This document shows positions 36,724 through 64,000 of a DNA stretch of 64,000 bases, piece by piece (positions within the stretch are counted from its first letter, which is position 1; each line of letters starts with the position of its first letter). This DNA comes from Escherichia phage phiWec188, in sequence record LC739537.1; one strand, given 5' to 3'. A program made the translations under genes and the position numbers. The notes beneath the pieces were generated by a model. The model was not told where the DNA came from and did not search any database. It saw nothing but the letters and a program-made list of their open reading frames with translations.

Positions 36724-36954
36724 CTATTTGTGAAGTGCTCTCTCGTACAACTCGATAATCAACTCGTCTTCGGCAGTAATACGGGCCATTTGATCTGTCT
36801 TCAGGATTGCTGGTTGGTAATGATGCATTTCACTGCTCAAGATACACTCCCACTCATCTTCCCCTACTCTCTCACCTACGTGAATCTTCACAGGATACCA
36901 GAAAGGATTGTCCACCAGGAATGCCATACAACCTTCTTCGATTTTGCTCAACAT
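36724..36954 (-). CDS. hypothetical protein (76 aa)
   Basis: AAAGGAGA RBS on minus strand. Confidence 0.5.
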   Translation of the reverse strand: MLSKIEEGCMAFLVDNPFWYPVKIHVGERVGEDEWECILSSEMHHYQPAILKTDQMARITAEDELIIELYERALHK

Positions 36955-36977
36955 AGTAATCTCCTTTGTTCAGATAT

Positions 36978-37000
36978 GAAAAAACCCGCCGAAGCGGGTT
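36978..37000 (-). terminator. minus-strand hairpin AACCCGC-TTCG-GCGGGTT + TTTTTT (terminator-like, downstream of candidate promoter at about 37020-37048)
   Basis: hairpin + U6 on minus strand between genes 37045..37329 and 36724..36954; preceded on minus strand by TTGACA-N17-GATACT. Confidence 0.45.
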
Positions 37001-37044
37001 CATGTGCTGCGGTAGGATCAGTATCCTACAACAAGAATTGTTTG

Positions 37045-37329
37045 TCAACGTTTAGAGTAGAAAAACTCCTCGTATTCTGATCGTGTGACTATTGCTGGGC
37101 GACCTTTAGTGCCGAAGAAGTTTGCGCTTGGGCCTTGTGCCATACCTTTATTGAACAAGCAGTAATCCCCACGCATATAAATCCCAGAGAATGTTTCAAC
37201 AACATCGTATTTGCCAACGCTGGAGAACTTAATTTCTCCATCTGCATCTCGAACTGCGATCACAGCTTGTTCAGGCCATTCTTCGTTGAGAGCTTTAAGA
37301 CCGTTGTAAACTTCTTGTACGAGTTCCAT
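37045..37329 (-). CDS. hypothetical protein (94 aa)
   Basis: AAGGAGG RBS. Confidence 0.5.
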   Translation of the reverse strand: MELVQEVYNGLKALNEEWPEQAVIAVRDADGEIKFSSVGKYDVVETFSGIYMRGDYCLFNKGMAQGPSANFFGTKGRPAIVTRSEYEEFFYSKR

Positions 37330-37338
37330 ATTACCTCC

Positions 37339-37512
37339 TTAAAGTACGATTTTTTCTTCGTCTGGTTTGTCATAATTTGGAGAGTAGACATGTGAAGGGT
37401 TGAAACCCTTGAAGCTACCACGTCCTTTACGAGGACAGTTGAAAGTACGAGCCTGATGATCACCGAAAGACTTACCACAATGCACACATTTGAAGTTGGT
37501 AACTTTATTCAT
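37339..37512 (-). CDS. small zinc-finger-like protein (57 aa)
   Basis: AAAGGAGAAGAAC RBS at internal ATG; CVHCGK...CPRKG. Confidence 0.45.
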   Translation of the reverse strand: MNKVTNFKCVHCGKSFGDHQARTFNCPRKGRGSFKGFNPSHVYSPNYDKPDEEKIVL

Positions 37513-37567
37513 GTTCTTCTCCTTTAGGTTAATAGGCTGCACCTATTAAGATGCAGCTTTTGATAGA

Positions 37568-37669
37568 TTATTTAGATGAGTCCAGAATATCTTTTACTTT
37601 GGCGATGATAACATCTTGATACTTATGGATGTGATATCCTACTACTAAACCTACGATAAATGCAATCAT
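37568..37669 (-). CDS. small hydrophobic ORF (33 aa)
   Basis: AGGAGAAAATA RBS; single predicted TM helix; below ORF-track cutoff. Confidence 0.3.
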   Translation of the reverse strand: MIAFIVGLVVGYHIHKYQDVIIAKVKDILDSSK

Positions 37670-37685
37670 TATTTTCTCCTATTAT

Positions 37686-38267
37686 TTAAAATGAAGCTTG
37701 CACTGGCATATCGAACCAGTAGAAAGATTGCGCCTGTTGCGGCGTAACTTTGCTATTGGTTGCTACAGCCAACACTCCAACATTGATACCTATCTGATCG
37801 TCGTCGATCTTATAATCTGAAGACCAGAGCTTAAGAGTCAACGGTGTTTTTCCAACGAGAAGATCAAGTCCTGCGTTTCCCCAGAGATTCACTTCAATCG
37901 CCTCGTCTTGAGATACATCTTGCTCTACTTCCTGTAGTTTGTCAAACACTTTCTGCACATCTTTTGGGTTAAGACGGATACTGTGCAGATAGTCAAACAT
38001 GTTCACAAAATCTTGTGCTCGTTTTGTGTTTTTAGATACAGGATGAAGACAGTGTGGCACTAACGGCGACACACGAATATATCCGCCCTCATCATACCAA
38101 CGCACAATAAACACATCTCGACTTGGTTGACGGTCTTTTGCTAAGATCGTAACTTCTTGACCCTCTTCAATGGATGGGTAGTCTGGATCATACGCTGATG
38201 CACCATAGACCAAAGCTATGTGTCCAACATCCAAAGGTGTTTTTCCGTCCCAATAAGTTGTTTCCAT
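37686..38267 (-). CDS. hypothetical protein (193 aa)
   Basis: AGGAGGGAAA RBS. Confidence 0.55.
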   Translation of the reverse strand: METTYWDGKTPLDVGHIALVYGASAYDPDYPSIEEGQEVTILAKDRQPSRDVFIVRWYDEGGYIRVSPLVPHCLHPVSKNTKRAQDFVNMFDYLHSIRLNPKDVQKVFDKLQEVEQDVSQDEAIEVNLWGNAGLDLLVGKTPLTLKLWSSDYKIDDDQIGINVGVLAVATNSKVTPQQAQSFYWFDMPVQASF

Positions 38268-38275
38268 TTTCCCTC

Positions 38276-38539
38276 CTAAATAAGATCTGTGAAGTAGTGA
38301 ATAACTTCAATATTATGGAAAAGCGTTTTACGCTCTTTTGTGTATTCTGTTGTCGTGACAGTCACCTTAGCCACCCCAAAATCTTTCATAGGGAACGTGG
38401 GTGCCTCTTTCAGAATATTCTGTACTGTTTGAATGGCTTCAAATTCTGTCTCCCAATAACTGAAGTAACCTTCGTCGTCCGTGACGAGATTCCTGCCTTC
38501 CAAGTTCACGAAACAATAAAACTCTCGCGGTGTTGTCAT
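38276..38539 (-). CDS. hypothetical protein (87 aa)
   Basis: GGAGAAGG RBS; ATGA overlap with upstream small ORF. Confidence 0.5.
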   Translation of the reverse strand: MTTPREFYCFVNLEGRNLVTDDEGYFSYWETEFEAIQTVQNILKEAPTFPMKDFGVAKVTVTTTEYTKERKTLFHNIEVIHYFTDLI

Positions 38540-38694
38540 TCCACCTTCTCCAGAGCTTTCTTGAAGAATGTGGCATGTAATAGATGACCCTCTGCATCAA
38601 ACCATGTCACTTTACAGGAGTCCCCGTAGTCCTCTGTGACGGTCATGATAACGGCTTCCCCACGTAAGGTTACAACATCACCTACTGTAATCAT
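38536..38694 (-). CDS. small ORF (52 aa)
   Basis: GGAGGA RBS; ATGA overlaps at both ends with flanking genes (translational coupling). Confidence 0.4.
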   Translation of the reverse strand: MITVGDVVTLRGEAVIMTVTEDYGDSCKVTWFDAEGHLLHATFFKKALEKVE

Positions 38695-39137
38695 AAATCC
38701 TCCGGTGTGCCAGCACGTAAAGCAGCTAAAGGTTCAGCCACAGCTTCCAGGGCAGCTTCAATCTGATCTTCAATCACATCACGAACCATTGCAATACGCT
38801 CATCGATATGCACAACGAAAGCATCGTTATAAGCACCAACTAACGTATTGTAAAATGTTTCTTGTGCGCTTAACGCGCCACTAAGAATGAAATTACGTTG
38901 ATCTTCAGGTAGTTGTTGGTGCTCTTCATATTTGGCAAACGTTTCACGGTTGATTTCCAACAGAGTCCCCATCATAAGGTCAAACTGCAACTCTTTGTCT
39001 GAGGGATTTCCCATTACAATGGTATTGTAAATGTTCAGCAAGCTGGTGCTAACACGAGCATTGTTTTCTACACCTTCCATCTGACGGAAAATAGTTAACA
39101 CATCAATAGTTTCTTCAATCTTTTCGTTTTGGTTCAT
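38691..39137 (-). CDS. hypothetical protein (148 aa)
   Basis: GAGGAGA RBS. Confidence 0.55.
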   Translation of the reverse strand: MNQNEKIEETIDVLTIFRQMEGVENNARVSTSLLNIYNTIVMGNPSDKELQFDLMMGTLLEINRETFAKYEEHQQLPEDQRNFILSGALSAQETFYNTLVGAYNDAFVVHIDERIAMVRDVIEDQIEAALEAVAEPLAALRAGTPEDL

Positions 39138-39315
39138 ATACGTTCTCCTCTATCATTGGAAGATATCCTGTAGTTTTACAGGGATTGCACTCATAAAGCT
39201 GGCCTACATCAACCATAACGTAGCCTAAACCTCCACAATATGGACACTCCATAGGGGTACAAGGCACAGGTGTTGTTGTGGTTACATCTGCAACACAGGC
39301 AATTCTCATTCCCAT
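39115..39315 (-). CDS. small zinc-ribbon protein (66 aa)
   Basis: CPYCGG...CNPCKTTG; AGGAGAATGGG RBS. Confidence 0.5.
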   Translation of the reverse strand: MGMRIACVADVTTTTPVPCTPMECPYCGGLGYVMVDVGQLYECNPCKTTGYLPMIEENVYEPKRKD

Positions 39316-39533
39316 TCTCCTATAAGCTGGGGATTCAAGGCGAATTGTGACATACGTTCAGTGGGAGAGTATAAGTACGGAGGTGTAATTTGCTCCAACA
39401 CCTTAGCTGCACGTACCTCATCTTCCACTCCAATATGAAGCCCACGCTCCATAGTTAATACACCATGATCGTTAAGAAGGAATAGAGATTCTACCCCATC
39501 CACCTTATCAATTGCAACATAAAGTTTAGTCAT
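39306..39533 (-). CDS. hypothetical protein, paralog pair B member 1 (75 aa)
   Basis: internal ATG with GGAGA RBS; C-terminus ...FALNPQLIGEWE shared with next gene. Confidence 0.5.
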   Translation of the reverse strand: MTKLYVAIDKVDGVESLFLLNDHGVLTMERGLHIGVEDEVRAAKVLEQITPPYLYSPTERMSQFALNPQLIGEWE

Positions 39534-39543
39534 ATTGTCTCCG

Positions 39544-39759
39544 TTACCATTCGGCAATCAGTTGAGGTTTGACAGCAAAAGCTTGAAAGGTAGTAATATC
39601 GTAAAGAAAAACATTATCCAATTCCTTAAGTTTAGCCGTCATGCCAGCTTTAGTTTCTCCGTCCCACGGGAAGATAGCAACACCATGTTCCCCGACCAAC
39701 CACCAGTGATAATTGCCGTCACGAAGATCTTTTGCTTTATAAAGATAATTAGTAATCAT
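39544..39759 (-). CDS. hypothetical protein, paralog pair B member 2 (71 aa)
   Basis: C-terminus ...FAVKPQLIAEW; start chosen at internal ATG (ORF-track N-terminal extension is low-complexity). Confidence 0.45.
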   Translation of the reverse strand: MITNYLYKAKDLRDGNYHWWLVGEHGVAIFPWDGETKAGMTAKLKELDNVFLYDITTFQAFAVKPQLIAEW

Positions 39760-39922
39760 TGCCACATTTCTCCCATCTTTGCATCGCCTGTAACCAGCCC
39801 TCGGCTCTTTCCCTGGTTTCGAAGTAGACAGGAATACCCGTCCCTGCAAATGTGACCCACCAAGTGAAGATCCACCAACCTGTTTTTATGCGATATCCTG
39901 TTTCATATTCGACCACTTTCAT
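39749..39922 (-). CDS. small Trp-rich membrane ORF (57 aa)
   Basis: AAAGGTGA RBS; hydrophobic TGWWIFTWWVTFAG segment; overlaps start of 39759 gene. Confidence 0.3.
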   Translation of the reverse strand: MKVVEYETGYRIKTGWWIFTWWVTFAGTGIPVYFETRERAEGWLQAMQRWEKCGNDY

Positions 39923-39950
39923 GAGTCACCTTTAAAATCGTCTCACTATA

Positions 39951-40193
39951 TCATTTACTATGTGCGTCTGTCAAGTTTTTCTTAGGGAAGAAGAGATCGC
40001 AATGATGGATGTAGAAGAGTTCCACCAAAGCTGCCTCCCTGTACGACAAACACTGCTCATACAATTGTTGTTCTTTATCTGCCGTCATGTTGTTAAGTCT
40101 TATCGCTCCGAAGAACACCAAGAGGAAAATACAGAATGCAACTATGACTGCTTGTAACCATTCTTTCACGATGTAACTCCAAAGTTTAGACAT
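39951..40193 (-). CDS. membrane protein (80 aa)
   Basis: AGGAGAAGG RBS; TM helix. Confidence 0.5.
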   Translation of the reverse strand: MSKLWSYIVKEWLQAVIVAFCIFLLVFFGAIRLNNMTADKEQQLYEQCLSYREAALVELFYIHHCDLFFPKKNLTDAHSK

Positions 40194-40252
40194 GCCTTCT
40201 CCTGTTATTTTACATTAAAGCCTGGGTAACAACCATCAGACAAATCTTAGTA

Positions 40253-40417
40253 TCATCTTATGGCTACAAGATAGAAACATAGAACACACCCAACCACACT
40301 TACTAAGAAACTAACATAAACAACAAGCTTGTTATCGTCCACAATAGCCACAGCTAATGCGGCAGATGTTACCACGAAAAGAACCATCAGCAGAATATCC
40401 CTGTTTACTACATCCAT
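40253..40417 (-). CDS. small membrane ORF (54 aa)
   Basis: GAGGAGGTG RBS; two hydrophobic segments; below ORF-track cutoff. Confidence 0.4.
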   Translation of the reverse strand: MDVVNRDILLMVLFVVTSAALAVAIVDDNKLVVYVSFLVSVVGCVLCFYLVAIR

Positions 40418-40442
40418 AGACACCTCCTCTTGTTAGTTACAG

Positions 40443-40475
40443 AGAGTATAATACCGGAACGTTACGATTACAACT
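40443..40475 (-). promoter_or_regulatory. candidate minus-strand promoter TTGTAA-N17-TATACT
   Basis: hexamers found on reverse complement about 25 nt upstream of the 40417 gene; coordinates approximate. Confidence 0.35.
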
Positions 40476-40703
40476 ACGAAGAACGGGTGATTTTGATTGA
40501 TAGGTAGGACTTATCTGAAAGGAATAATTGATAGGGAACGCTGTATTGACTTTTGCGAAAAAACATGCTACCCTAAACATATGTTTACGAGCGATAGCGA
40601 GTAGTGATTTGTATAGTATTATTGCATGTTACTCACGATAGGGAGTAAGCAATGTTAGTGAGGTAGACAGACTATGATCAACCATCTACCTACTAACTAT
40701 CTA

Positions 40704-40907
40704 TTACTCAGAGAAGGTACATTCGAATACAGTCCAGACTAATATTACAGTCCAAGATGCTAACAGTATTCTGAAGATAGTCCACCAACTAAACACATCT
40801 ACCGTAATCCAGTGTCCAGCTACCAGTGATCCTGCTAACCAACCTCCTACAACACTAATAATCCAAATAATAAAAGCTATTACGGAATACGTAGCAAATT
40901 TCATCAT
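40704..40907 (-). CDS. membrane protein (67 aa)
   Basis: AGAGGAGGTG RBS; W-rich hydrophobic helices. Confidence 0.5.
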   Translation of the reverse strand: MMKFATYSVIAFIIWIISVVGGWLAGSLVAGHWITVDVFSWWTIFRILLASWTVILVWTVFECTFSE

Positions 40908-41185
40908 ACACCTCCTCTGTAAAGTTTGTCTTCTCGTTTAACTTCAATCTTACCATCCTTGTCTACAAGAATCAACACTGAACATGAGTAATATCCTTCT
41001 GCAACAGTCTCGATCTGTTCTTCCAGATCCTTCGTCAATTCTTCTCCCATAAGATAGAAGGCAAACTTCGTGCAATGTAATAACTCTTCCTTGAAGTTAA
41101 CCATCTTGTAGATGTTCATCCCAGTCTTATGTTCATCTACTGTCCAACCGCTTGATCGAAGTCTGACTGCTGCGTTATGTCTCAT
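40904..41185 (-). CDS. hypothetical protein (93 aa)
   Basis: ATGA overlap with upstream small ORF. Confidence 0.5.
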   Translation of the reverse strand: MRHNAAVRLRSSGWTVDEHKTGMNIYKMVNFKEELLHCTKFAFYLMGEELTKDLEEQIETVAEGYYSCSVLILVDKDGKIEVKREDKLYRGGV

Positions 41186-41325
41186 CGTCCGTTACCATTC
41201 AATTGATCACGTAGCTTTTCTGCATCCCGTTTCTGTGGAAACGTGGCAACAGAGACATTGAACTCATTAACAACAGAAAAGGACTTATCCAGATTTTCAC
41301 GGATAGTAAAAGGTTTCTTGCTCAT
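41182..41325 (-). CDS. small ORF (47 aa)
   Basis: GGAGGGAG RBS; ATGA overlaps at both ends. Confidence 0.4.
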   Translation of the reverse strand: MSKKPFTIRENLDKSFSVVNEFNVSVATFPQKRDAEKLRDQLNGNGR

Positions 41326-41675
41326 AATCTCCCTCCATCTTTAAGACGACTCTTAACCCAGTGCAGACGATCTGGATCTGTGTGTTGTGAAGCATTTTCC
41401 GCATCCAGTAAATAAGACTTTCTTCCGAACGGATATGTTTCACATAGCTCTGCTTCAATAAACTGATTATACATCTCTTTCATAGTATCTTCGATTAAAT
41501 ACCAGTCACCTTCTGGAAGGTCTAAATCATACAACCAATACTCAAGATTGCCACACAAGCCTACAGAAGAGCTAAACACGTCTTCCATAACAAGGCCCGT
41601 CTCATCTCGATTTTCAGCCCAAGATAACCAAGCCTGATAAAAATCTAAAAGCAGTTTACTTGATGCAATCTTCAT
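41322..41675 (-). CDS. family-A small protein, paralog 1 of 9 (117 aa)
   Basis: shares FYxxWLxWAE...GLC...YPFG...H..(D/N)..RL.WVK.RL pattern with eight other genes; AGGAGAG RBS. Confidence 0.55.
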   Translation of the reverse strand: MKIASSKLLLDFYQAWLSWAENRDETGLVMEDVFSSSVGLCGNLEYWLYDLDLPEGDWYLIEDTMKEMYNQFIEAELCETYPFGRKSYLLDAENASQHTDPDRLHWVKSRLKDGGRL

Positions 41676-41677
41676 AC

Positions 41678-41863
41678 TCACTCTCCTACACTTTCTGGTG
41701 TGCCATCCCAAGCACCTAAGACTTCTTTCAGGTGTGCACGGGGTTCTTTAAAATACTCTTCCATTTTATCCAGAAGATCGTCTGTGTTTGGGCTGTATCC
41801 CAACATCCCACGTAAAACTCTTTCTTCTTGCAAGACCAACCATCTATGATAGCTTCGAATCAT
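41678..41863 (-). CDS. hypothetical protein (61 aa)
   Basis: GGAGGAATATT RBS at internal ATG. Confidence 0.4.
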   Translation of the reverse strand: MIRSYHRWLVLQEERVLRGMLGYSPNTDDLLDKMEEYFKEPRAHLKEVLGAWDGTPESVGE

Positions 41864-42278
41864 AATATTCCTCCAGGAGTTTCTCAATTCTCTGAACGGT
41901 CTTAGTATCCCAATAAACCTTCTTAAAGTCAAGTGTTCCGTGTGCATTTCTTTTTGTTTCGAAGTAATAACCACCTTCGCGCTCCAAGCGATCACGGATC
42001 ACTTCTATAAGATGATTTTTAGAGTTTTTTGTCAAGCAATAGTCATACTCTCCTTTTAAGAGATCTATAGAAGGTTGACGGTTATCTCCAACCTGGGAAA
42101 TCTTCCAGCTAACCAGCGATCCTTGGATACCAACATCTGTCTGCTTCACAGAGAAGCCTTTTGAACCCCAGCCTCCCAATGTGACCATTGTTAGCGGTTC
42201 TCCTGTTAGAGAGCAGCTAAGGGTGTCATTACGTGGTCCACCTAAAGTGGAAAACCATTTGAAAATCTTCTTAAACAT
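41844..42278 (-). CDS. hypothetical protein (144 aa)
   Basis: GAGAGGAGCAT RBS at internal ATG. Confidence 0.5.
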   Translation of the reverse strand: MFKKIFKWFSTLGGPRNDTLSCSLTGEPLTMVTLGGWGSKGFSVKQTDVGIQGSLVSWKISQVGDNRQPSIDLLKGEYDYCLTKNSKNHLIEVIRDRLEREGGYYFETKRNAHGTLDFKKVYWDTKTVQRIEKLLEEYYDSKLS

Positions 42279-42339
42279 TTTATGCTCCTCTCGTTCAACA
42301 TGCACAAACAATAACACCCTCCGAAGAGGGTGTCAATGA

Positions 42340-42549
42340 TTACTCGATCACAAAAAACGTAGCATTCAAACGTCTGAATGTCGCAGGGCTATATCCGTGA
42401 TCACACTCTTCAATGAACTGATCTGTAGTCTGATCGTAACTATAATACTGATCATTTTGGAAATGGAAGGACGCACAGAACAAATCATCTCCTACAGTCC
42501 ACACTGCCACAAAGTTCTTACCGAACGGATAACCTTCAACTGCTTTCAT
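42340..42549 (-). CDS. hypothetical protein (69 aa)
   Basis: AGAGGAGGGAAA RBS. Confidence 0.5.
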   Translation of the reverse strand: MKAVEGYPFGKNFVAVWTVGDDLFCASFHFQNDQYYSYDQTTDQFIEECDHGYSPATFRRLNATFFVIE

Positions 42550-42560
42550 TTTCCCTCCTC

Positions 42561-42830
42561 TTACCAAGAAACATACATAGAGTAAACAAGATCATTACAG
42601 TCTGTCGAGAACGTAGCACTGCAACCTTGAGATCTTAATTTGTCACAAATCCCGCGTACAATCGAAGCTTGTAGTTCTTTACCTTGCGGTAGACCTAAAG
42701 CTTTCACTGGGTGTTGAATCTGTATGCTGTAGTAACCCTCTTCGGCTGCTGTTGTGATTAAGGTTTTTGCTCGTTGGATATACTCAAAGTTCACAGAGTC
42801 TGCCAAAGCGTGTAAAGAATATGCGTCCAT
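42561..42830 (-). CDS. hypothetical protein (89 aa)
   Basis: GAGGAGG RBS. Confidence 0.5.
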   Translation of the reverse strand: MDAYSLHALADSVNFEYIQRAKTLITTAAEEGYYSIQIQHPVKALGLPQGKELQASIVRGICDKLRSQGCSATFSTDCNDLVYSMYVSW

Positions 42831-42839
42831 GTTACCTCC

Positions 42840-43175
42840 TCAAGAACGATCGAGTTTCATTAAAAATACAATCATAGCTGCACGCAGGGGCTTATCGTCT
42901 CCACGGGACGGTACACCTTCTGTTTTCGCAAGCCAACCGCGAGGAAAACCATCTTCCCCTGTTACAGGACTGATACAAATCCTGTGTTTTACTATGATAG
43001 CCCAAGCATCTGCTGGATCATTGCAGTAATCATACCAAGTGTAATTGCCGTTGCAGTCATTTCCCACTGATCGTCCATCTGCATTGTGCGGATAACCTAA
43101 AGGCTTGACACCGTGGACTGCTGCAAACACACGCTTGTTGATTTCAAAATCACTCATTACTCCATATTCTGTCAT
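42840..43175 (-). CDS. NinX/DUF2591-like protein (111 aa)
   Basis: pattern ...FEINKRVFAA..G...DGRSVG...W.DYCNDPADAWAII...I...P resembles phage NinX family as I recall it. Confidence 0.35.
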   Translation of the reverse strand: MTEYGVMSDFEINKRVFAAVHGVKPLGYPHNADGRSVGNDCNGNYTWYDYCNDPADAWAIIVKHRICISPVTGEDGFPRGWLAKTEGVPSRGDDKPLRAAMIVFLMKLDRS

Positions 43176-43501
43176 GTTTTCTCCTTGTTTTTGGATACTG
43201 GAAGGATGTTGATCATAACTACACCGTTATAATCATAAGTATCGTTAATTTGAGTCTCTACTTCCCGAATATCATCCAGAGTGGGAGGCCAATTTGTAAA
43301 TTGTACATCAATATTCCCCACACCCAGACTCTTACCCTCCCTCGGCCTGTAGTTGTACACAAAAACCGTATTGTAGGAGAGTTTTTGATGTTTGTTACGC
43401 TTCTTAAAAGTGCGGTCTAAGGCGTAGATGCTTCCTATGACACATACCGCTACAGCAACAACCACAATGTTAAAATAGAGTTCTTGTAGAATTGCACTCA
43501 T
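43172..43501 (-). CDS. membrane-anchored hypothetical protein (109 aa)
   Basis: AAAGGGGG RBS; N-terminal TM helix. Confidence 0.5.
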   Translation of the reverse strand: MSAILQELYFNIVVVAVAVCVIGSIYALDRTFKKRNKHQKLSYNTVFVYNYRPREGKSLGVGNIDVQFTNWPPTLDDIREVETQINDTYDYNGVVMINILPVSKNKEKT

Positions 43502-43503
43502 TG

Positions 43504-43833: not shown

Positions 43834-43841
43834 TTTAGCTC

Positions 43842-56497: not shown

Positions 56498-56556
56498 TTC
56501 AATCTCCTCATTGGCTATCTGTTATGCGCGGTATGCAAACCACTATACAGACATTT

Positions 56557-56919: not shown

Positions 56920-56920
56920 A

Positions 56921-57301: not shown

Positions 57302-58882
57302 GATAATCTCCTCTCTTGGTTTCATGACAAACATCGTAACTCTCAACGAGGAACATCTTACGATCAATCCTCGGCAATTACAATTCATTTATCATTGGTA
57401 TTCCCTATCAATTATTCCATATATACCTGTTATTTTTGACACCCCTTTGGTCAAATATTAATCGGCAAAATATCTGGGGGGAGAGATTATTTCGATACCC
57501 TCTGTTCCTGCGATTTATCGGCAAGAATATCATCGGCAAAGAGACAGAAAAGCCTTTGGTAGCAAGGATTTATGGCGAGTACGTCAGGACTGCTGAACGC
57601 GAATTTTCCGGCCCCTCCACTTCTGCGCGCCGGAATCTTCAAATATCAATGAGAATAATTATCATTATCATTCGCATTCAATAACTTAGGCGATCTTTTC
57701 CCCTGCTATAAGGTTGGGCCTAACTTAAGCACTACTTTTTAAACAATCCTTTATCAATCAACTACTTAACAACCTAAACATATGATTACTACGGTGTAAA
57801 GGTGCCGCCCATAACAGACTACCTATAAAATAAATGAGAATGATTATTATTCAGACAATTCTTACAACAAATCGACCAATAAATCAAGATTTTTCTGATT
57901 TTATTTACGTTTAAGAGAACGTGCTCAACATATCCGCCATAGGCGGCTATCTTTCCCCCGCAAACATTAAGCCTTTATCTTTCATCTTTCTGTATATCTG
58001 TACACTATGCAACCTGTCGCTATTCGCTCATGTTGCTACGTGCTAATCCTTCACCATGCTAATGATGATCACACTGAACGATAGTGATAACTCATGTAAT
58101 AATTACATTGATTATTATATTACGCTTAACTATTCTTACATACAATGCTAATAATAAGCCAGCGTAATTAGTGTAAGCGTAATACGCTTGCAATAATTGC
58201 AAGCTACATAATCACAAGAAATAACTATCACCGATAGTTATGATTGTGGGGGTGTAGTTGGCTTATTATTAGCTCGCTACGTGTCCGGCGTAGCGTGCTA
58301 ATGATGAGGCTTGGAATGATTCATTTTACAATTATTACAGTCTTCACTATTTCGGCAATAGGCACTATTTTACTAATAGTTGTTATTTTAATGATTTCAT
58401 TTGTTATCGTTAGTTAGTTGGTTGTTTTGTCGTGTTATCGTTATCTTGCTTAGTATTCATCATGGTTTGATTGTTTGTCGTTATCAATCATCTTTCTATT
58501 ATTCCTTTGATTATGATTAGTTTGCTTATTGTTTTAGGTTGTTGGTTGGTTAGTTGTTGCGAACTATTATCAACATTATAGTTATGCACTTATATTGCAT
58601 AGATACGCAAGGTTAGATGATAATGGTTATCATTGCACTGGAAAGGAGGAAAACAGCCTTTTTCGGTTGTTTGTTGTTGGTTGTTGATCGATTTTAACCG
58701 CTCTAAATAGCTCTCTAACAGCCTGTTGCCCTGGGAGGTATGGTTATTCGTTTGCTGGTTGATTAGCTCGATACCGCGATTTATTCATTTTTGTTCTGTG
58801 TCGGTTTTTCATAGGCGGAAGCTATCAACATTATTTGGACAAAAAGAAAGGGCGCTTAGTGCGCCCCTTGTTTTGTTGTCGA
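57302..58882. other. about 1.6 kb non-coding region: AT-rich, palindromes and direct repeats, followed by a GT-skewed low-complexity tract
   Basis: no ORF of 60 aa or more on the gene-bearing minus strand; palindromes near 58175-58204 (AAGCGTAATACGCTT, GCTTGCAATAATTGCAAGC) and 58221-58241 (ATAACTATCACCGATAGTTAT); repeated ATCGGCAA and GCTAATGATGA words; T/G-rich iteron-like tract about 58380-58700. Confidence 0.6.
58849..58873 (-). terminator. minus-strand terminator (GGGGCGCACTAAGCGCCC + TTTCTTT)
   Basis: GC hairpin + U-tract immediately downstream of gene 58883..59302. Confidence 0.5.
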
Positions 58883-59302
58883 TTATAAAGCTTCATAGAT
58901 TGAGTATATCCGGTTCGCCAGGTCATTACGAAAGCGGAATTTTTCATCACGTTTAATCATCAGATCCTTAAAACCGCATTCTTTCAATGCTTCGTTAACT
59001 TTACTGCGGCATACTTTCATATTGTCCTGCGCGTCACCAATAAACTTATTGCTATGATGCATTGCTTTGATCTCTTCTTCCAGGACCAGGGCAACTACAC
59101 GGATCGGATCAAGCTGATACGCGGTAACATCCATGCGGCATTGTAAACGGCTTTTAACGTCTGCCACCGGATATACTGCAACCTCTTCCCCGTCAACGTT
59201 CACGATAACCAGTTTACCATCAATTTCGAAGCCTTTAGCGGCGCTACCGTGACAAAAAGCGTTGTCGAAGGAGTAAGCTGGATTATTTGATTTAATGTTC
59301 AT
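58883..59302 (-). CDS. hypothetical protein (139 aa)
   Basis: long ORF; AAAGGA 9 nt upstream; own promoter upstream. Confidence 0.55.
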   Translation of the reverse strand: MNIKSNNPAYSFDNAFCHGSAAKGFEIDGKLVIVNVDGEEVAVYPVADVKSRLQCRMDVTAYQLDPIRVVALVLEEEIKAMHHSNKFIGDAQDNMKVCRSKVNEALKECGFKDLMIKRDEKFRFRNDLANRIYSIYEAL

Positions 59303-59344
59303 GGTGTTGTCCTTTGTTTCGTTTCGTTGTTTGCTGCCAGTGAG

Positions 59345-59380
59345 TTAAATATAATATAACGCCGATCCCCTGTCAATAGG
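59345..59380 (-). promoter_or_regulatory. promoter TTGACA-N17-TATATT flanked by inverted repeat CCCCT...AGGGG
   Basis: hexamers on reverse complement upstream of 59302 gene; coordinates approximate. Confidence 0.45.
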
Positions 59381-59409
59381 GGATAGCGCATTATTTACAT
59401 TTCTTTACG

Positions 59410-59433
59410 TTAAAGGGCGCTTAGTGCGCCCTT
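59410..59433 (-). terminator. minus-strand terminator-like hairpin (AGGGCGCACTAAGCGCCCTTT)
   Basis: same hairpin sequence as at 58.85 kb, downstream of gene 59442..59810. Confidence 0.45.
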
Positions 59434-59441
59434 GTACAATC

Positions 59442-59810
59442 TTACTTTGTGCGGTTGTAAACGTTATCGCGTTCAACCATCAAGGCAAGGCGGATCAGTT
59501 GATCAGTTGTATCGCGTAAGCTGTCAGGCCATGTTTTATTGTTCCAGCTATCTAAATTTGATTGAATATAGGTTTCAATGGCTTGATCCATATTGTCGAA
59601 CAAGTTTGCCTCCAGGCTCTCGGCTGTTTCACACTGGAAAGCATCAGCGACACTATTAATCAATAAGCAAGCCAGTAGATCAGCGTTGCGCCAATTTTTA
59701 CGGATAGTTTCATCTTTCAGATAACCAACGAGATCAACCTTTGCGCCAGTGGTGGACGTTGCGATCACTTCTTGCGCTTTTTCAACTGCTTTAATTGCTG
59801 ATTTGCTCAT
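59442..59810 (-). CDS. hypothetical protein (122 aa)
   Basis: AAGAGGAAAAGAAG RBS. Confidence 0.55.
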   Translation of the reverse strand: MSKSAIKAVEKAQEVIATSTTGAKVDLVGYLKDETIRKNWRNADLLACLLINSVADAFQCETAESLEANLFDNMDQAIETYIQSNLDSWNNKTWPDSLRDTTDQLIRLALMVERDNVYNRTK

Positions 59811-59825
59811 CTTCTTTTCCTCTTT

Positions 59826-59890
59826 GTGGGCTTGCTGTATTGCTCGCCCTACGCAATAACTATAAGTTAACAGGGTGTATAAAGCAAGCT
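59826..59890 (-). promoter_or_regulatory. promoter-leader cassette (TTGCTT-N17-TATAGT, then ...CGTAGGGCGAGC hairpin)
   Basis: member of repeated cassette family; coordinates approximate. Confidence 0.35.
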
Positions 59891-60122
59891 ATTTTTTATA
59901 AAATTTTTCTGCTGTGATATTCTTCCCTGTAGGCTTAACCGCTTGCAAGATCTTATCATGCGCCGGACGTCCAAAGGAATAAGATCCATAAACGGTAAAC
60001 CAATAATCCCCGTCAGGTTGAACGGTTACGGCGGCGTAGGGTGTACCTCTCTCATTATCACCGATAAAGTGTGAAACATTGCCGTTAACGTTCGATTTAG
60101 TGCTTTTAATTTGTCCGATCAT
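59889..60122 (-). CDS. hypothetical protein (77 aa)
   Basis: weak RBS; own promoter cassette upstream. Confidence 0.5.
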   Translation of the reverse strand: MIGQIKSTKSNVNGNVSHFIGDNERGTPYAAVTVQPDGDYWFTVYGSYSFGRPAHDKILQAVKPTGKNITAEKFYKK

Positions 60123-60139
60123 GGTGTTATTCCTATATT

Positions 60140-60202
60140 AGACGGGAAACATTCCCGCCCTACGTGATAAATAATAATATAAGCGTGATCCGGTGTCAAT
60201 AG
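60140..60202 (-). promoter_or_regulatory. promoter-leader cassette (TTGACA-N17-TATTAT, CACGTAGGGCGGGAA-TGT-TTCCCG hairpin)
   Basis: conserved GATCCGGTGTCAATAG upstream element and CCCTACGTGATAAAT leader on + strand. Confidence 0.45.
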
Positions 60203-60373
60203 GTAGAATTGTAAAGATTTGATAGTTTATCTCTTTGATGTTTTGTTGTTTGATAGGTGTTAGCTATCAATATATAGCGGGGTCGTCCGGTGATTACCTC
60301 CCCCGTTGCCAGTGCCGCCCGTTCAATAAGCATAACAAAAAACAGGACAAAAACAAGCCCTGTTTTGTAAAGA

Positions 60374-60577
60374 TTAGATGATCTGCATATCCTCCACGAT
60401 AATTTCTAATTTCCAAACAAGATGATCTAAGCTCCCTGATAAAAATGATTCCGATACATAACCGCCATCGGACACCGTAGCAAGGATCTCGCCATTTGCT
60501 TGCTCTTTGATTTGAACATCCAGGCGGTTAGCCTTTGCTTTATTCAGGACGGCGATCAGGCGGTTAGCTGTAGTCAT
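60374..60577 (-). CDS. hypothetical protein (67 aa)
   Basis: GGAAGGAAAAACACC RBS at internal ATG. Confidence 0.5.
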   Translation of the reverse strand: MTTANRLIAVLNKAKANRLDVQIKEQANGEILATVSDGGYVSESFLSGSLDHLVWKLEIIVEDMQII

Positions 60578-60597
60578 GGTGTTTTTCCTTCCAGTTG

Positions 60598-60660
60598 TGA
60601 GCGGCACCATTGCCGCCCTACGAAATACATCTTACACTATCCGGCACATCATGCAAGCTA
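60598..60660 (-). promoter_or_regulatory. promoter-leader cassette (TTGCAT-N16-TAAGAT, CGTAGGGCGGCA-ATGG-TGCCGC hairpin)
   Basis: member of repeated cassette family. Confidence 0.4.
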
Positions 60661-60662
60661 TT

Positions 60663-60854
60663 TTATACTTCGTCACCTATATAATCAGATCTGTTCTTCT
60701 CTGTCATACGCTTAAGCAATTCCTGCATATGGCTTATAGCTTGCAATGTGTCTTCTTCCAGGCTTGAATCCACATAATCAGGATCATTCTTTACCTTGCT
60801 ATGGTTGTGATAACGCAACGCTGCTAATACCTTTCTAACTTGTTCTGCATTCAT
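60663..60854 (-). CDS. hypothetical protein (63 aa)
   Basis: TAAGGAGTAATAAAA RBS. Confidence 0.5.
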   Translation of the reverse strand: MNAEQVRKVLAALRYHNHSKVKNDPDYVDSSLEEDTLQAISHMQELLKRMTEKNRSDYIGDEV

Positions 60855-60866
60855 TTTTATTACTCC

Positions 60867-61001
60867 TTAAAACCAGGTGCCAACCGTTTCCAATAGGTCA
60901 CTGACTACCAGAACAACACCGATTAGCACATATTTAACCAGGAAGGGGATTAGCGCCAGCGTTGCTACTATGATCCCCATTGTCATGATTACCTTTCTCA
61001 T
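60867..61001 (-). CDS. small membrane ORF (44 aa)
   Basis: ATG overlaps stop of upstream gene (ATGA); two hydrophobic segments. Confidence 0.35.
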   Translation of the reverse strand: MRKVIMTMGIIVATLALIPFLVKYVLIGVVLVVSDLLETVGTWF

Positions 61002-61288
61002 TGTTGGCGGTTTACGTAAGCTTTACCGTTTACGGTCATCGGTATGGCCTCAAGGTCTGGATCTTCCTTAAGGTCGCGTGCAAGCTCACCGCACCGGACA
61101 CCCTCGAATCCGTGGTATTCTGTTTCCCCGTCCTTAAAAGTTTTAGCGGCAAGGCATAGGCGATAATTAACCCCGATCCGGTTTACTGCGTTGATATCGG
61201 TTAACGTGATCGATTCAGGCAAATCGTTAGCCATTACAGGCGCGTTAATACCAACAACCAGGGCAACTACTGCGATCATCTTTTTCAT
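60998..61288 (-). CDS. secreted protein with signal peptide (96 aa)
   Basis: MKKMIAVVALVVGINAPVMA|ND signal peptide; GGAAGAGGATAG RBS. Confidence 0.55.
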   Translation of the reverse strand: MKKMIAVVALVVGINAPVMANDLPESITLTDINAVNRIGVNYRLCLAAKTFKDGETEYHGFEGVRCGELARDLKEDPDLEAIPMTVNGKAYVNRQQ

Positions 61289-61339
61289 GTTGTCTATCCT
61301 CTTCCTATTGCGTTTAATGGGGCGTTGCCGCCCCGCTGA

Positions 61340-61564
61340 TTAATTACGTTGGCTGTTTTCTACTATCGACTTTAAAATAAAGTCAGTTACGCCCTTTGTG
61401 TCATCCGGCGGGAAGTTATCAGCATAGCACCAGGCATAAGCGCCATCAACTGGAAGCGGGAAGATATGCACGCTTAGATCCCCATAATCATATTCAGTTA
61501 TTTCTACCTTGAGATCCGACAATTCAGCCAGTTTAATAGCTTGTAACATTCTAACAATACTCAT
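61340..61564 (-). CDS. hypothetical protein (74 aa)
   Basis: AGAAAGGAAAAG RBS; GGGCGGCAACGCCCC hairpin in 5' leader. Confidence 0.5.
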   Translation of the reverse strand: MSIVRMLQAIKLAELSDLKVEITEYDYGDLSVHIFPLPVDGAYAWCYADNFPPDDTKGVTDFILKSIVENSQRN

Positions 61565-61603
61565 AATCTTTTCCTTTCTGATAGTGGGGCGTTGCCGCCC
61601 TTT

Positions 61604-61849
61604 TTAGAATTGACGCGTTACGCGATCGGTGTTTTCTTCCTTTACAACCTTACCTGTTGCTACCATTTCGCTGATTTTTTCATCGTTGATAATGTTGTTA
61701 TTCTCTTTGATCCAGGTCCAACGATTACCCATCAAAGTATTCCCTTTTAACGCATAATACCAAATGTTGTTAGGCATTTTGATCCAAGCCATACCGCGCG
61801 AATTTTTCGGGTCGTGGTAGATATTGCCAATTTTAGTTGTCTGGTACAT
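61604..61849 (-). CDS. hypothetical protein (81 aa)
   Basis: AAAGGTAAAACATC RBS. Confidence 0.5.
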   Translation of the reverse strand: MYQTTKIGNIYHDPKNSRGMAWIKMPNNIWYYALKGNTLMGNRWTWIKENNNIINDEKISEMVATGKVVKEENTDRVTRQF

Positions 61850-61869
61850 GATGTTTTACCTTTTTCCAG

Positions 61870-61932
61870 GAAGCGGGAACTATTCCCGCCCTACGTGGTA
61901 AATATTATCATATTGACGATCCGTGTCAATAG
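61870..61932 (-). promoter_or_regulatory. promoter-leader cassette (TTGACA-N16-TAATAT, CACGTAGGGCGGGAA-TAG-TTCCCGC hairpin)
   Basis: conserved GATCCGTGTCAATAG and CCCTACGTGGTAAATATTATCA elements. Confidence 0.45.
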
Positions 61933-61949
61933 TTTTTTGGAGTTTTTAC

Positions 61950-62351
61950 TTACAGGCCCAAGATAGCCCGTGCATCGTTACGCTGTTTAGTCTCAGTCAT
62001 GATCATATTTAAAATGGTCGGATTAATATAACCTTTCTCCATAGCTTCGCGGACTGGTACATCATAAGCACCGAAACCAGTGCGAACGATACGCACATCA
62101 TTCAGATTAGTGTTATAGATCCCGCCTAAATCAACCGACTGGAAAACGGCATCAACACTATATTCAGTGTTGCCATCGTTGACGTTTTCGATCTCAATGT
62201 TGCGAGACACCGCCCAACGTTTACAGCCTCCAATCAGGTAGCATTGTTCCTTTGTCAGATTACCATTGGAAACCGCATATTTCAGGGCTTCAGCGCCGAA
62301 AGTTTTAGCAATGTTAACAACGTCAGTATAAGAAAGGATCGTAATGTTCAT
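61950..62351 (-). CDS. hypothetical protein (133 aa)
   Basis: GGAG RBS; own promoter cassette. Confidence 0.55.
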   Translation of the reverse strand: MNITILSYTDVVNIAKTFGAEALKYAVSNGNLTKEQCYLIGGCKRWAVSRNIEIENVNDGNTEYSVDAVFQSVDLGGIYNTNLNDVRIVRTGFGAYDVPVREAMEKGYINPTILNMIMTETKQRNDARAILGL

Positions 62352-62369
62352 GGTTATAACTCCAAATGG

Positions 62370-62435
62370 TGAGCGGCACCATTGCCGCCCTACGTGGTAA
62401 ATATTATCACACTGGTGATCTGTGTCAATACTATT
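62370..62435 (-). promoter_or_regulatory. promoter-leader cassette (TTGACA-N16-TAATAT with TG extension, CACGTAGGGCGGCA-ATGG-TGCCGC hairpin)
   Basis: near-identical to cassette at 61.9 kb. Confidence 0.45.
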
Positions 62436-62453
62436 TATTCAATATAAATAAAA

Positions 62454-62669
62454 TTATGATGTGCGCTCAATTATGATAATGGTCTGTGGGATCTCGTTTT
62501 CTGCCACTATCAGGGCTTTTTTCTGCGTGATAGTTATTTTAACACGTTGCAACGATGCGGTAAAGTCTTTCATTTCGTTATGTGCGGACTTGCTGCAATG
62601 CCAGATCTCAGGCTTACCAACTTGTAAGCCGCGTAAAAATTCCGTTTTGCCTGCTTTGTTCGTGAACAT
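62454..62669 (-). CDS. hypothetical protein (71 aa)
   Basis: AAGGTGAAACAA RBS at ATG. Confidence 0.45.
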   Translation of the reverse strand: MFTNKAGKTEFLRGLQVGKPEIWHCSKSAHNEMKDFTASLQRVKITITQKKALIVAENEIPQTIIIIERTS

Positions 62670-62679
62670 TTGTTTCACC

Positions 62680-62784
62680 TTAACCGATACCGTGAGAAGA
62701 TAGGATCATATTAGCCATAGTTGCAACCACTCCAACCGATAACGCCAGGCCAACTATTGCAACCGTGAAAATTTTCTCTAACAT
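62680..62784 (-). CDS. small membrane peptide (34 aa)
   Basis: AAAGAGGGTAGCATC RBS; single TM helix; ORF-track N-terminal extension would overlap promoter cassette. Confidence 0.3.
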   Translation of the reverse strand: MLEKIFTVAIVGLALSVGVVATMANMILSSHGIG

Positions 62785-62867
62785 GATGCTACCCTCTTTA
62801 ATGGGCGTTGCCTTATTGCCCCGCCCTACGTGATACACTTTACCAGAAAACAAAATACTGTCAAGAT

Positions 62868-63005
62868 TTATTTTACTTCCCAAACGGAAAATTCACTACC
62901 TGGCGGGATCATTCTTTTAATCTTGTTTGCTGCTGCTACCAGGTCCACGGCTTGCACTGTAATAATATAACCAATTGTCGAGGCTGTTGCATTGAAAGTT
63001 TTCAT
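62868..63005 (-). CDS. small ORF (45 aa)
   Basis: GGTGAGGGTAATATA RBS; own cassette upstream. Confidence 0.35.
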   Translation of the reverse strand: MKTFNATASTIGYIITVQAVDLVAAANKIKRMIPPGSEFSVWEVK

Positions 63006-63021
63006 TATATTACCCTCACCA

Positions 63022-63075
63022 TCGGCGGCACCATTGCCGCCCTACAAGATGAATACTACGCGCTTACTTTGCTGT
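63022..63075 (-). promoter_or_regulatory. promoter-leader cassette (TTGACA-N17-TAGTAT, TTGTAGGGCGGCA-ATGG-TGCCGCC hairpin)
   Basis: member of repeated cassette family. Confidence 0.4.
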
Positions 63076-63246
63076 TGTCAACAAGGGGCGAAAAAACTTT
63101 TTGATCTGGCTTGCTGTTAGGCGCATATCTGCTTTGAGCGTTGCCAGGCGATAAGCCTTACCCTTAATCAGTTTATGGTGTCCGGTGCCGTTGCCGATGA
63201 TAACATCAATTTCACACAATACACGGGAAGAATCAATCTTTTTCAT
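63064..63246 (-). CDS. hypothetical protein (60 aa)
   Basis: AGAAAGGTAACAAG RBS; GGGGCGACAAGCGCCCC hairpin in leader. Confidence 0.4.
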   Translation of the reverse strand: MKKIDSSRVLCEIDVIIGNGTGHHKLIKGKAYRLATLKADMRLTASQIKKFFRPLLTTAK

Positions 63247-63294
63247 CTTGTTACCTTTCTTGTTATGGGGCGCTTGTCGCCCCTGGTTTATGGT

Positions 63295-63480
63295 TTATTT
63301 GACTATGTGACGATCATTATATTCAGTGTAAAACTCGCAACCATCGTCACGACTATCAAGTTTAACAATGTAACCAGTTTGATAACGTTCAATAGATACC
63401 ATTGCATAAAACTTACCATTCAGGATATTTCTAACCAGATCGCCTTTTACCAATTCTTTCGTTTTCTTGTAAGTAGTCAT
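63295..63480 (-). CDS. hypothetical protein (61 aa)
   Basis: internal ATG; cassette upstream. Confidence 0.45.
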   Translation of the reverse strand: MTTYKKTKELVKGDLVRNILNGKFYAMVSIERYQTGYIVKLDSRDDGCEFYTEYNDRHIVK

Positions 63481-63497
63481 GATGTTTTCTCTTCTGT

Positions 63498-63560
63498 TAG
63501 GCGGGGCGCTTGTCGCCCCTATGTGATACATCTTATCAGGTTGATTCAGCTTGTCAAACT
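63498..63560 (-). promoter_or_regulatory. promoter-leader cassette (TTGACA-N16-TAAGAT, CACATAGGGGCGACAAGCGCCCC hairpin)
   Basis: member of repeated cassette family. Confidence 0.4.
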
Positions 63561-63738
63561 ATTTGTTAGCCGGATTATATGCCAGGACCGCGCCACTTGC
63601 TTTCACGCTTTCCGCTTCATAGTTGCGCAGATCGTTTTCTGTAAGATTGAGCGCGATCACTTCCTCGATCTCAATACCAGTGGCAAGGGCGATCTCTTTA
63701 ATGATGTTTGATGATCTGATAACGTTTACTGTTTTCAT
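63559..63738 (-). CDS. hypothetical protein (59 aa)
   Basis: AAGGTG RBS at internal ATG. Confidence 0.45.
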   Translation of the reverse strand: MKTVNVIRSSNIIKEIALATGIEIEEVIALNLTENDLRNYEAESVKASGAVLAYNPANK

Positions 63739-63748
63739 GGTGTGCACC

Positions 63749-63868
63749 TTATAAGATGATTGATAAGATAGTGATAACGAAAGCGATAACACCAACGGCG
63801 ATCGTAGTCTTACGCCCTTCGGATACTGCCGGATTCTCTACCGTGTATTCTACTGTGTATTTGTTCAT
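63749..63868 (-). CDS. small membrane ORF (39 aa)
   Basis: GAGGATAACACA RBS; C-terminal TM helix. Confidence 0.35.
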   Translation of the reverse strand: MNKYTVEYTVENPAVSEGRKTTIAVGVIAFVITILSIIL

Positions 63869-63884
63869 TGTGTTATCCTCTCGC

Positions 63885-63945
63885 TTGCTTTGGGAACTAT
63901 TCCCGCCGCCCTATGAATTAAATATACACTATCTCAAAATGATTG
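63885..63945 (-). promoter_or_regulatory. promoter-leader cassette (TTGCAA-N16-TATATT, CATAGGGCGGCGGGAA-TAG-TTCCC hairpin)
   Basis: member of repeated cassette family at window end. Confidence 0.35.
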
Positions 63946-64000
63946 CAAACCTTTTTCTAAATTATTTTTATGCAGTAAATAAACCATCGTTTACAACGGC

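Follow-up and report, generated by a model that had tools for sequence, protein, structure and literature searches.

Introduction

The closest known match to the region described here is the small-gene region of phages rV5, phAPEC8, ESCO13 and Schickermooser. In rV5 this region comprises 88 mainly small open reading frames (ORFs), most of them closely packed or overlapping and each with a consensus ribosome-binding site, plus an ORF-free stretch (PMC3606486). Two other described systems resemble parts of it: the ATGA and TAATG stop/start overlaps that couple translation in bacterial and phage operons, and the promoter-early stem-loop (PeSL), known from ORFan shuffling in the hyperplastic regions of T4-type phages (PMC2839356). 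Here we analyse a window of 64,000 nucleotides (nt), the whole stretch of DNA under study, from Escherichia phage phiWec188 (LC739537.1). Our subject is a set of 14 ORFs of 33-54 amino acids (aa), ten on the minus strand and four on the plus strand, which an earlier inspection of the letters alone (the sequence-only reading) had put forward as unannotated genes chained by stop/start overlaps. RAST and DFAST, and later also Pharokka, were used to annotate the phiWec phages, and a new genus, 'Wecvirus', has been proposed for them (PMC12695924). We conclude, with a probability of about 0.85, that the short ORFs are genuine and already catalogued small protein-coding genes in the ORFan-rich early region of a phAPEC8/rV5-like myovirus.

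The short ORFs are conserved and annotated

By megablast the window is 100% identical to Escherichia phage phiWec190 (LC739539.1, Stephanstirmvirinae) over 42764-56700 and 3000-24500, and 99.7% identical over 56700-64000. It is oriented as the reverse complement of that record and spans its ends, and the differences between them are an indel of 1 bp and, near 63.5 kb, a stretch of about 0.85 kb that the window lacks; the two phages may be sister isolates. Genome comparison indicates that the phage is a phAPEC8/rV5-like Escherichia coli myovirus. Six of the ten minus-strand micro-ORFs have orthologues in phAPEC8, mostly as annotated coding sequences (CDS). The locus differs from the phAPEC8 type in its fast gene turnover, as only about 30% of the 20-kb block can be aligned to such genomes, and in two ORFs (40253 and 50857) that are confined to the phiWec group. 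The 14 ORFs, hereafter named by their first coordinate, are as follows.

37568..37669, minus strand: 33-aa peptide, hydrophobic over a short N-terminal part and amphipathic at the C-terminus; phrog_11666; CDS in PsgM04F, ESCO13, phAPEC8 and nepoznato
38536..38694, minus strand: 52-aa DUF2158 (YodC-like) protein, ATGA at both ends; phrog_3261; CDS BDU13626.1
40253..40417, minus strand: 54-aa predicted two-helix membrane hairpin; CDS BDU13619.1
41182..41325, minus strand: 47-aa soluble protein, ATGA at both ends; phrog_27860 (E=2e-21); CDS BDU13616.1
50857..51012, minus strand: 51-aa soluble protein, probably helical; CDS BDU13877.1
52371..52529, minus strand: 52-aa micro-protein resembling ribosome modulation factor (RMF-like), its stop overlapping the next start (ATGA)
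60867..61001, minus strand: 44-aa hydrophobic membrane peptide; phrog_16005 (E=1e-26); CDS in PsgM04F, not in phiWec190
62680..62784, minus strand: 34-aa single-helix membrane peptide, first cistron after a cassette; phrog_14631; CDS in PsgM04F and ESCO25
62868..63005, minus strand: 45-aa protein, first cistron after a cassette; phrog_29854 (E=3e-36); CDS BDU13846.1
63749..63868, minus strand: 39-aa tail-anchored membrane peptide, first cistron after a cassette; phrog_10979 'membrane protein'; CDS BDU13839.1
3607..3741, plus strand: 44-aa acidic protein; CDS BDU13695.1; tblastn matches of 61-100% identity in 30 phage records, annotated in every case
4999..5160, plus strand: 53-aa protein; CDS BDU13691.1; matches of 57-100% identity in 16 phage records, likewise all annotated
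19632..19775, plus strand: 47-aa putative zinc-finger peptide of DnaJ type (CxxCxGxG twice); phrog_8027
23833..23982, plus strand: 49-aa protein with a basic N-terminus and an acidic C-terminus; phrog_14981 (E=8e-35)

All 14 ORFs lie at the coordinates reported for them, each with an ATG start and a stop codon. To quantify selection, each ORF was compared with its most diverged ungapped orthologue by Nei-Gojobori counts. The comparison used ten stretches from eight relatives, at 63-99% nucleotide identity, taken from GenBank phage records because a locus search of IMG/VR with the resolvase returned a single relative. Eleven of the 14 ORFs could be evaluated in this way. In the claimed frame the pooled proportion of synonymous differences (pS) is 0.267 and that of non-synonymous differences (pN) 0.041, giving a pN/pS of 0.15 (binomial p=7e-27 for the synonymous excess), whereas reading these alignments in frames +1 and +2 yields 0.94 and 1.78. 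Conservation and synonymous constraint, which had been named at the outset as one way to check these ORFs, reveal purifying selection specific to the claimed frame. Moreover, the orthologues of the ten minus-strand ORFs and of 23833 start with ATG and are open across the full matched length, down to 59-63% aa identity; the end position is mostly the same, with a shift of up to three codons in either direction in a few.

Five gap ORFs that the sequence-only reading had not listed (40437-40580, 60196-60333, 59299-59391, 59867-59989 and 50552-50644) served as controls. They are preceded by no Shine-Dalgarno sequence, their starts or stops are broken in relatives, and their pooled pN/pS is 0.80, which is not significant; we do not regard them as genes. 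Two of them, 60196-60333 and 59299-59391, overlap strong promoter matches. As the controls fail the selection test that the 11 evaluated ORFs pass, the sequence-only reading had picked real genes. The presence of a Shine-Dalgarno sequence and the frame-specific pN/pS agree for all ORFs except one.

The same reading was mistaken in calling these genes unannotated. LC739539.1 lists 11 of the 14 as CDS ('hypothetical protein'), and the other three (60867-61001, 37568-37669 and 62680-62784) are all CDS in PsgM04F, with at least one of them also a CDS in ESCO13, phAPEC8, nepoznato and ESCO25; the records bearing them are OR584014, KX552041, JX561091, MN850571 or OM386656. Nor would they be missed by standard annotation, given that RAST/DFAST called the 11 in phiWec190 and that Pharokka or manual annotation called the others in relatives. 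Families in PHROGs match ten of the 14 ORFs (E 3e-9 to 3e-36), and one scores above the cutoff for Pfam DUF2158. The tblastn matches of 3607, 4999 and 40253, the last in 5 phage records, all fall under annotated CDS. The impression of unannotated genes arose because the ORF track used at the earlier stage had a 60-aa limit. The genes are already in GenBank and in PHROGs, and their architecture has been known since the description of rV5 in 2013.

Several points weigh against reading all 14 ORFs as genes. Three plus-strand ORFs (3607, 4999 and 19632) lie outside the selection test with local relatives, and their support is tblastn conservation and annotation; 50857-51012 has one orthologue only; and the local test is nearly powerless for 52371-52529, whose orthologues there are 98-99% identical with 1 synonymous and 1 non-synonymous change and whose conservation is supported by tblastn matches in 77 phage records. 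In addition, we found no expression data for these phages in the literature, and the evidence presented here is sequence-based only. The frame-specific purifying selection, the intact orthologues, the Shine-Dalgarno sequences and the tight coupling nevertheless support the reading of the ORFs as genuinely translated genes.

Gene packing and translational coupling

The minus-strand gene map, composed of the CDS of LC739539.1 and the three CDS annotated only in relatives, has 84 genes from 36724 to 63868; 13 of them encode fewer than 60 aa. It includes a dense leftward block and three sub-60-aa genes that the sequence-only reading had not mentioned.

36724..57301, minus strand: leftward block of 67 closely packed small genes, from the CDS in LC739539.1 and the junction map
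37339..37512, minus strand: 57-aa zinc-ribbon protein, CDS in LC739539.1 (pN 0.08 / pS 0.83)
39749-39922, minus strand: 57-aa protein, CDS in LC739539.1
63559-63738, minus strand: 59-aa protein, CDS in LC739539.1

The 83 junctions between these 84 genes comprise 17 ATGA overlaps of 4 nt, 4 overlaps of one nt, 9 longer overlaps and 26 spacers of at most 20 nt. This tight packing is not a product of chance, because a Shine-Dalgarno sequence precedes 12 of the 18 sense-strand (minus) ATG-ORFs of 30-59 aa in the gaps, against 0 of 27 minus-strand ATG-ORFs of the same size lying off-frame within larger genes and 0 of 4 gap ORFs on the antisense strand. A scan of the remaining gaps for ORFs of 8-29 aa with a Shine-Dalgarno sequence gave nothing convincing. 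The arrangement resembles the ATGA/TAATG coupling of bacterial and phage operons in its ATGA and one-nt overlaps and in having the Shine-Dalgarno sequence inside the upstream CDS; nothing about it is distinctive here, and coupling is a prediction. Translation within operons is probably coupled.

Four ORFs had been given as examples of ATGA overlaps at both ends. This holds for 38536-38694 and 41182-41325, while the other two have the overlap at one end each: 52371-52529 at its stop, its start lying 12 nt past the upstream stop, and 60867-61001 at its start, its stop falling 12 nt short of the next start. Likewise, the claim of strong Shine-Dalgarno sequences is borne out by the enrichment in gap ORFs overall and does not apply to 60867-61001, which has none. 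For this gene the overlap is the sole visible route of translation, which presumably depends on reinitiation.

Such overlaps raise the alternative that the ORFs are translated merely as ribosome relays on a polycistronic mRNA, unfolding the next start while yielding functionless peptides. The abundance of stop/start overlaps, the location of several stops inside the Shine-Dalgarno sequence of the next gene (62680, 60867, 3607 and 4999) and the lack of a Shine-Dalgarno sequence of its own in 60867 all go in this direction. An open frame would suffice for a relay, yet here the aa sequence itself is conserved, as the pooled pN/pS shows; hydrophobic helices, Cys motifs and the GY..G/NPY/W..GF motif are kept across genera, and one product belongs to a Pfam family. 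We therefore hold the relay explanation to be very improbable.

Membrane peptides

The 14 ORFs encode a mixed set of products: besides the RMF-like two-helix protein and the DUF2158 protein there are four membrane peptides, putative zinc-finger peptides and a number of ORFans. That several are single-helix membrane peptides is confirmed for 60867, 62680 and 63749, with one predicted span each, and needs correcting for 40253, predicted to be a two-helix hairpin. The Kyte-Doolittle maxima over 19 residues of these four peptides range from 2.35 to 2.93, the highest being that of 40253, and their hydrophobic character is kept in the orthologues.

The sequence-only reading had suggested holin-like peptides among them, and the four could in principle be holins, antiholins or other lysis-timing peptides. 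Their small size and their one or two predicted transmembrane helices would suit such a role, and no holin is annotated beside the endolysin in the fetched stretches of this phage group. Against it, none of the four matches a holin family in PHROGs, Pfam or NCBIfam, and their C-termini (...FYLVAIR, ...SSHGIG, ...ILSIIL and ...LLETVGTWF) are not highly charged. The candidates are encoded on the minus strand between 40.2 and 63.9 kb, at least 16 kb from the plus-strand endolysin (23991-24494, Pfam Phage_lysozyme), and they stand behind sigma-70-type promoter matches with a perfect TTGACA in an early-type ORFan region. Moreover, 40253 occurs in no records other than the five of the phiWec group, a distribution not expected of an essential lysis gene. 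A function in lysis is accordingly most unlikely for these peptides. The ORF that ends 8 nt upstream of the endolysin, 23833-23982, is highly charged and, having no hydrophobic span, is not a holin either.

The weakest alternative is that the short ORFs lie in non-coding spacers and are open merely by chance: single open frames of 33-54 codons are not rare, shuffled gaps often carry an ATG-ORF over at least half of the gap, and the five control ORFs are of this very kind, but the frame-specific constraint that vanishes in shifted frames, the intact orthologues at 59-98% aa identity, the restriction of Shine-Dalgarno sequences to sense-strand gap ORFs and the PHROG membership of most ORFs make it barely credible, and for the 11 selection-tested ORFs it is already refuted. 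The gap-shuffling test itself was uninformative, since its null is inflated by the flanks that were kept and by the lenient requirement of 50% coverage; the Shine-Dalgarno contrast and the selection test were used instead.

An RMF-like protein encoded at 52371-52529

The known system closest to the product of 52371-52529 is RMF (PF04957, NF011162; PDB 4V8G, 6H4N and 2JRM). The two proteins are alike in length (52 versus 55 aa), in their succession of a helix, a linker of about 13 residues and a second helix, and in an in-register motif GY..G...G / (C/N)PY / W..G(W/F). The NCBIfam model NF011162 matches the micro-protein from end to end (E=2.3e-5) with 24.2 bits, below its 40-bit cutoff, and it matches 7 of the 8 members of the family at E<=0.01. 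A 98%-identical cluster is named 'ribosome modulation factor' by its JGI source, and one metagenomic viral protein has been auto-named RMF. An hhalign comparison with 16 RMFs is weak (probability 15%, E=0.0018), with GY..G, (C/N)PY and W..G(W/F) in register, and the RMF residues A12, G16, G20, G23, P30, W40 and G43 are kept.

An AlphaFold2 model, built from a family alignment containing no RMF sequences and without templates, has a predicted local distance difference test score (pLDDT) of 85.6 and shows helices at residues 5-16 and 31-48 joined by a linker. When this model was compared with 350,542 PDB chains using Foldseek, RMF took ranks 1, 2 and 4 (9iot_y, 6h4n_v and 2jrm), which means that all three distinct RMF sequences in the PDB were recovered. 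RMF is the top PDB structural match by two methods.

Other results speak against an RMF identity. The structural E-values for single RMF matches are not significant. The family is undetected by the Pfam RMF model and in the precomputed Pfam domains on its members, our own hidden Markov model built from 104 RMFs gives it only 5.6 bits and fails to detect it, and a phmmer search of PDB sequences with the micro-protein returned no RMF match. Its net charge is 0 whereas RMF is strongly basic, the rRNA-binding Arg/Lys residues being gone: the RMF invariants R3, K5, R6, R11 and R45 have no counterpart. Taking both sides together, we think it rather likely that the model captures an RMF-fold protein, probably a diverged homologue with an altered rRNA-binding surface.

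The distribution of the family points to phages. Using tblastn we found it in 77 phage records, and in every annotated one it is a 'hypothetical protein'; BFVD likewise lists the phAPEC8 orthologue as 'uncharacterized'. Its holders are Stephanstirmvirinae (about 66% identity), Klebsiella and Pectobacterium phages, and three coliphages of 137-145 kb (W70, LTH01 and A7_1) in which the match reaches the adjacent CCA tRNA nucleotidyltransferase gene. By these matches the family is conserved across two subfamilies. An exhaustive phmmer search of 1.84 billion representatives retrieved only six relatives, and where a long contig is recorded these lie on contigs of at most about 150 kb, as large as the genomes of these phages. 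Both searches place the family on phage-sized contigs only. Our literature search found no paper on a phage RMF. More tentatively, and with considerable doubt, this phage-only family may be a diverged viral RMF homologue that is made early and acts on the ribosome-hibernation machinery of the host. Such a protein could compete with or antagonise RMF/HPF, freeing the hibernating 100S ribosomes of non-growing cells for the phage; alternatively, it could park ribosomes.

The sequence-only reading had also proposed regulatory peptides. The RMF-like fold of this ORF and the putative zinc-finger peptides lend this some support, with roles that are predicted only.

Promoters and repeated cassettes

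In a promoter scan of the 36.7-57.3 kb interval, the best sigma-70 matches lie nearly all on the minus strand. Six of them fall within the few intergenic gaps, with first hexamers at 54289, 48876, 47153, 46316, 42336 and 39974, and the supposed chain of genes is therefore better described as a series of short operons. Promoters and terminators are annotated in the same region of the phAPEC8 record. Further along, the organization changes to a repeated unit.

58800..64000, minus strand: repeated cassette followed by one to three small genes per copy, from motif search and hairpin prediction

Each cassette presents, in this order, a promoter match TTGACA-N16/17-TAnnnT, a cGTAGGGCGG...CCGCCC stem-loop, a Shine-Dalgarno sequence and an ATG. 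Its core is present in 8 copies, and there are at least 9 promoter matches with a perfect or near-perfect TTGACA; the 5' hairpins are predicted at -12 to -15 kcal/mol. The ORFs 63749, 62868 and 62680 are first cistrons behind cassettes. Between other cistrons, stem-loops of the GGGGCG...CGCCCC type occur without a promoter on the minus strand (63250-63285, 61570-61600 and 61295-61330), and these could be attenuators or elements of RNA processing or stability.

The roughly 0.85 kb missing from the window and present in LC739539.1 carry three ORFans (BDU13841-13843). At the corresponding point of the window, 53 nt (63476-63528) align to two cassette copies of that record, 129070-129122 and 129922-129974. 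This single event fits a cassette-mediated deletion of the ORFans.

The cassettes are similar to the PeSLs of T4-type phages (PMC2839356, PMC4122927) in that a strong sigma-70-like promoter, a GGGC...GCCC stem-loop and a Shine-Dalgarno/ATG are repeated before ORFans, and in that an ORFan indel between near-identical isolates ends in two cassette copies. They differ in their lineage, which is Stephanstirmvirinae and not T4-like, and in the predicted stem-loop, which here is always downstream of the -10 box, in the 5' untranslated region. A weaker reading is that they would constitute a PeSL-like gene-shuffling system outside T4-like phages.

From these elements a scheme of expression can be proposed. 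Host sigma-70 RNA polymerase would transcribe the region from many promoter matches, with the promoter/stem-loop cassettes of 58.9-64 kb each driving one to three genes and the promoters in the intergenic gaps of 36.7-57.3 kb starting short operons. Within these operons, ribosomes would move from gene to gene by means of strong Shine-Dalgarno sequences in the 3' end of the upstream gene, to which termination-reinitiation at ATGA or TAATG overlaps would contribute. We infer early expression from the consensus promoter matches and the position of the genes. Their products would then act early on host physiology (envelope, ribosome or other targets) and not in lysis.

Properties of the individual small genes

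The DUF2158 protein encoded at 38536-38694 scores 26.8 bits against PF09926 (cutoff 22.3), with residues 4-45 covering positions 2-47 of the 50 in the profile; its orthologues are 63-98% identical (pN 0.26 / pS 0.77). Compared with its closest relatives, 41182-41325 has accumulated 10 synonymous and 0 non-synonymous changes. In 62868-63005 there are 7 synonymous and 2 non-synonymous changes. The membrane peptide gene 60867-61001 is intact in 5 relatives (pN 0.13 / pS 0.40); 62680-62784 is 94-97% identical in 5 relatives; and the orthologues of 63749-63868 (59-100% identity) are all intact. For 37568-37669, pN is 0.08 and pS 0.53; a weak match to a ZapG-like protein was judged to reflect composition only. 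The same judgement was reached on the resemblance of 40253 to 2TM effectors (SLATT_4, PADLOC 2TM; E ~0.01); the five 'Wecvirus' records in which this gene is found include PsgM04F, and its pN is 0.11 and pS 0.49. As for 50857-51012, it matches nothing in PHROGs or Pfam, and its sole orthologue, in an IMG/VR contig, is 90% identical (pN 0.04 / pS 0.19).

On the plus strand, 19632-19775 encodes the motifs CPICGGTG and CWHCSGSG and matches PF00684 (DnaJ_CXXCXGXG) at E=3.8e-4 with 21.1 bits, below the cutoff of 32.7. It has a paralogue on the minus strand at 39115-39309, which gives one protein with DnaJ-type CxxCxGxG motifs per gene block; the Pharokka label 'DNA ligase' on the counterpart of this paralogue in PsgM04F looks like a mis-annotation. 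Finally, 23833-23982 is kept at the same position in nepoznato (Phapecoctavirus) and EmilieFrey (Justusliebigvirus), with a pN of 0.03-0.09, a pS of 0.44-0.49 and a pN/pS of about 0.06-0.19.

Conserved non-coding stretches and other observations

Between the two parts of the region lies a stretch of 1.58 kb (57302-58882) with no credible ORF on either strand, A/C-rich on the minus strand. It is present in all fetched relatives and matches the 'non-coding' box of rV5 (PMC3606486). It holds a three-copy family of Fur-box-like 18-mers (57649, 57834 and 58617). The site at 57651-57669 agrees with GATAATGATAATCATTATC at 17 of 19 positions, where 0.03 such matches are expected by chance, and seven relatives share the site at 58619-58637 without any change. 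The whole window has no Rfam match at gathering thresholds, and a scan of the ORF-free region by E-value returned chance-level matches only.

A second stretch, the 286 nt of 40418-40703, lies upstream of the gene for the two-helix membrane peptide and shows 98-100% conservation among members of the phiWec group. Since the 47-codon ORF that it contains (40437-40580) has frameshifts or stop codons in relatives, the stretch is conserved non-coding DNA.

In the middle of the small-gene block, the minus-strand gene 43842-44516 encodes a serine recombinase (Pfam Resolvase, E=2e-16), here in a virulent phage; it is annotated as a DNA invertase or resolvase in relatives. Unexpected host labels were seen on near-identical genomes, namely Pseudomonas phage PsgM04F, 94.6% identical to this coliphage, as well as Campylobacter phage B15 and Acinetobacter phage ABPW7. 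These labels may reflect claims of polyvalence or the context of isolation, not true host range.

Implications

The region offers a worked example of how real micro-genes can be separated from chance ORFs in gaps, and it shows that an ORF track limited to 60 aa under-reports genes in phage early regions. Most of the ORFs examined here are real but ordinary; the RMF-like protein is the part that deserves attention at the bench. If it does act as proposed, it would be a case of a phage interfering with ribosome hibernation, which would be relevant to the infection of stationary-phase cells by large virulent coliphages.

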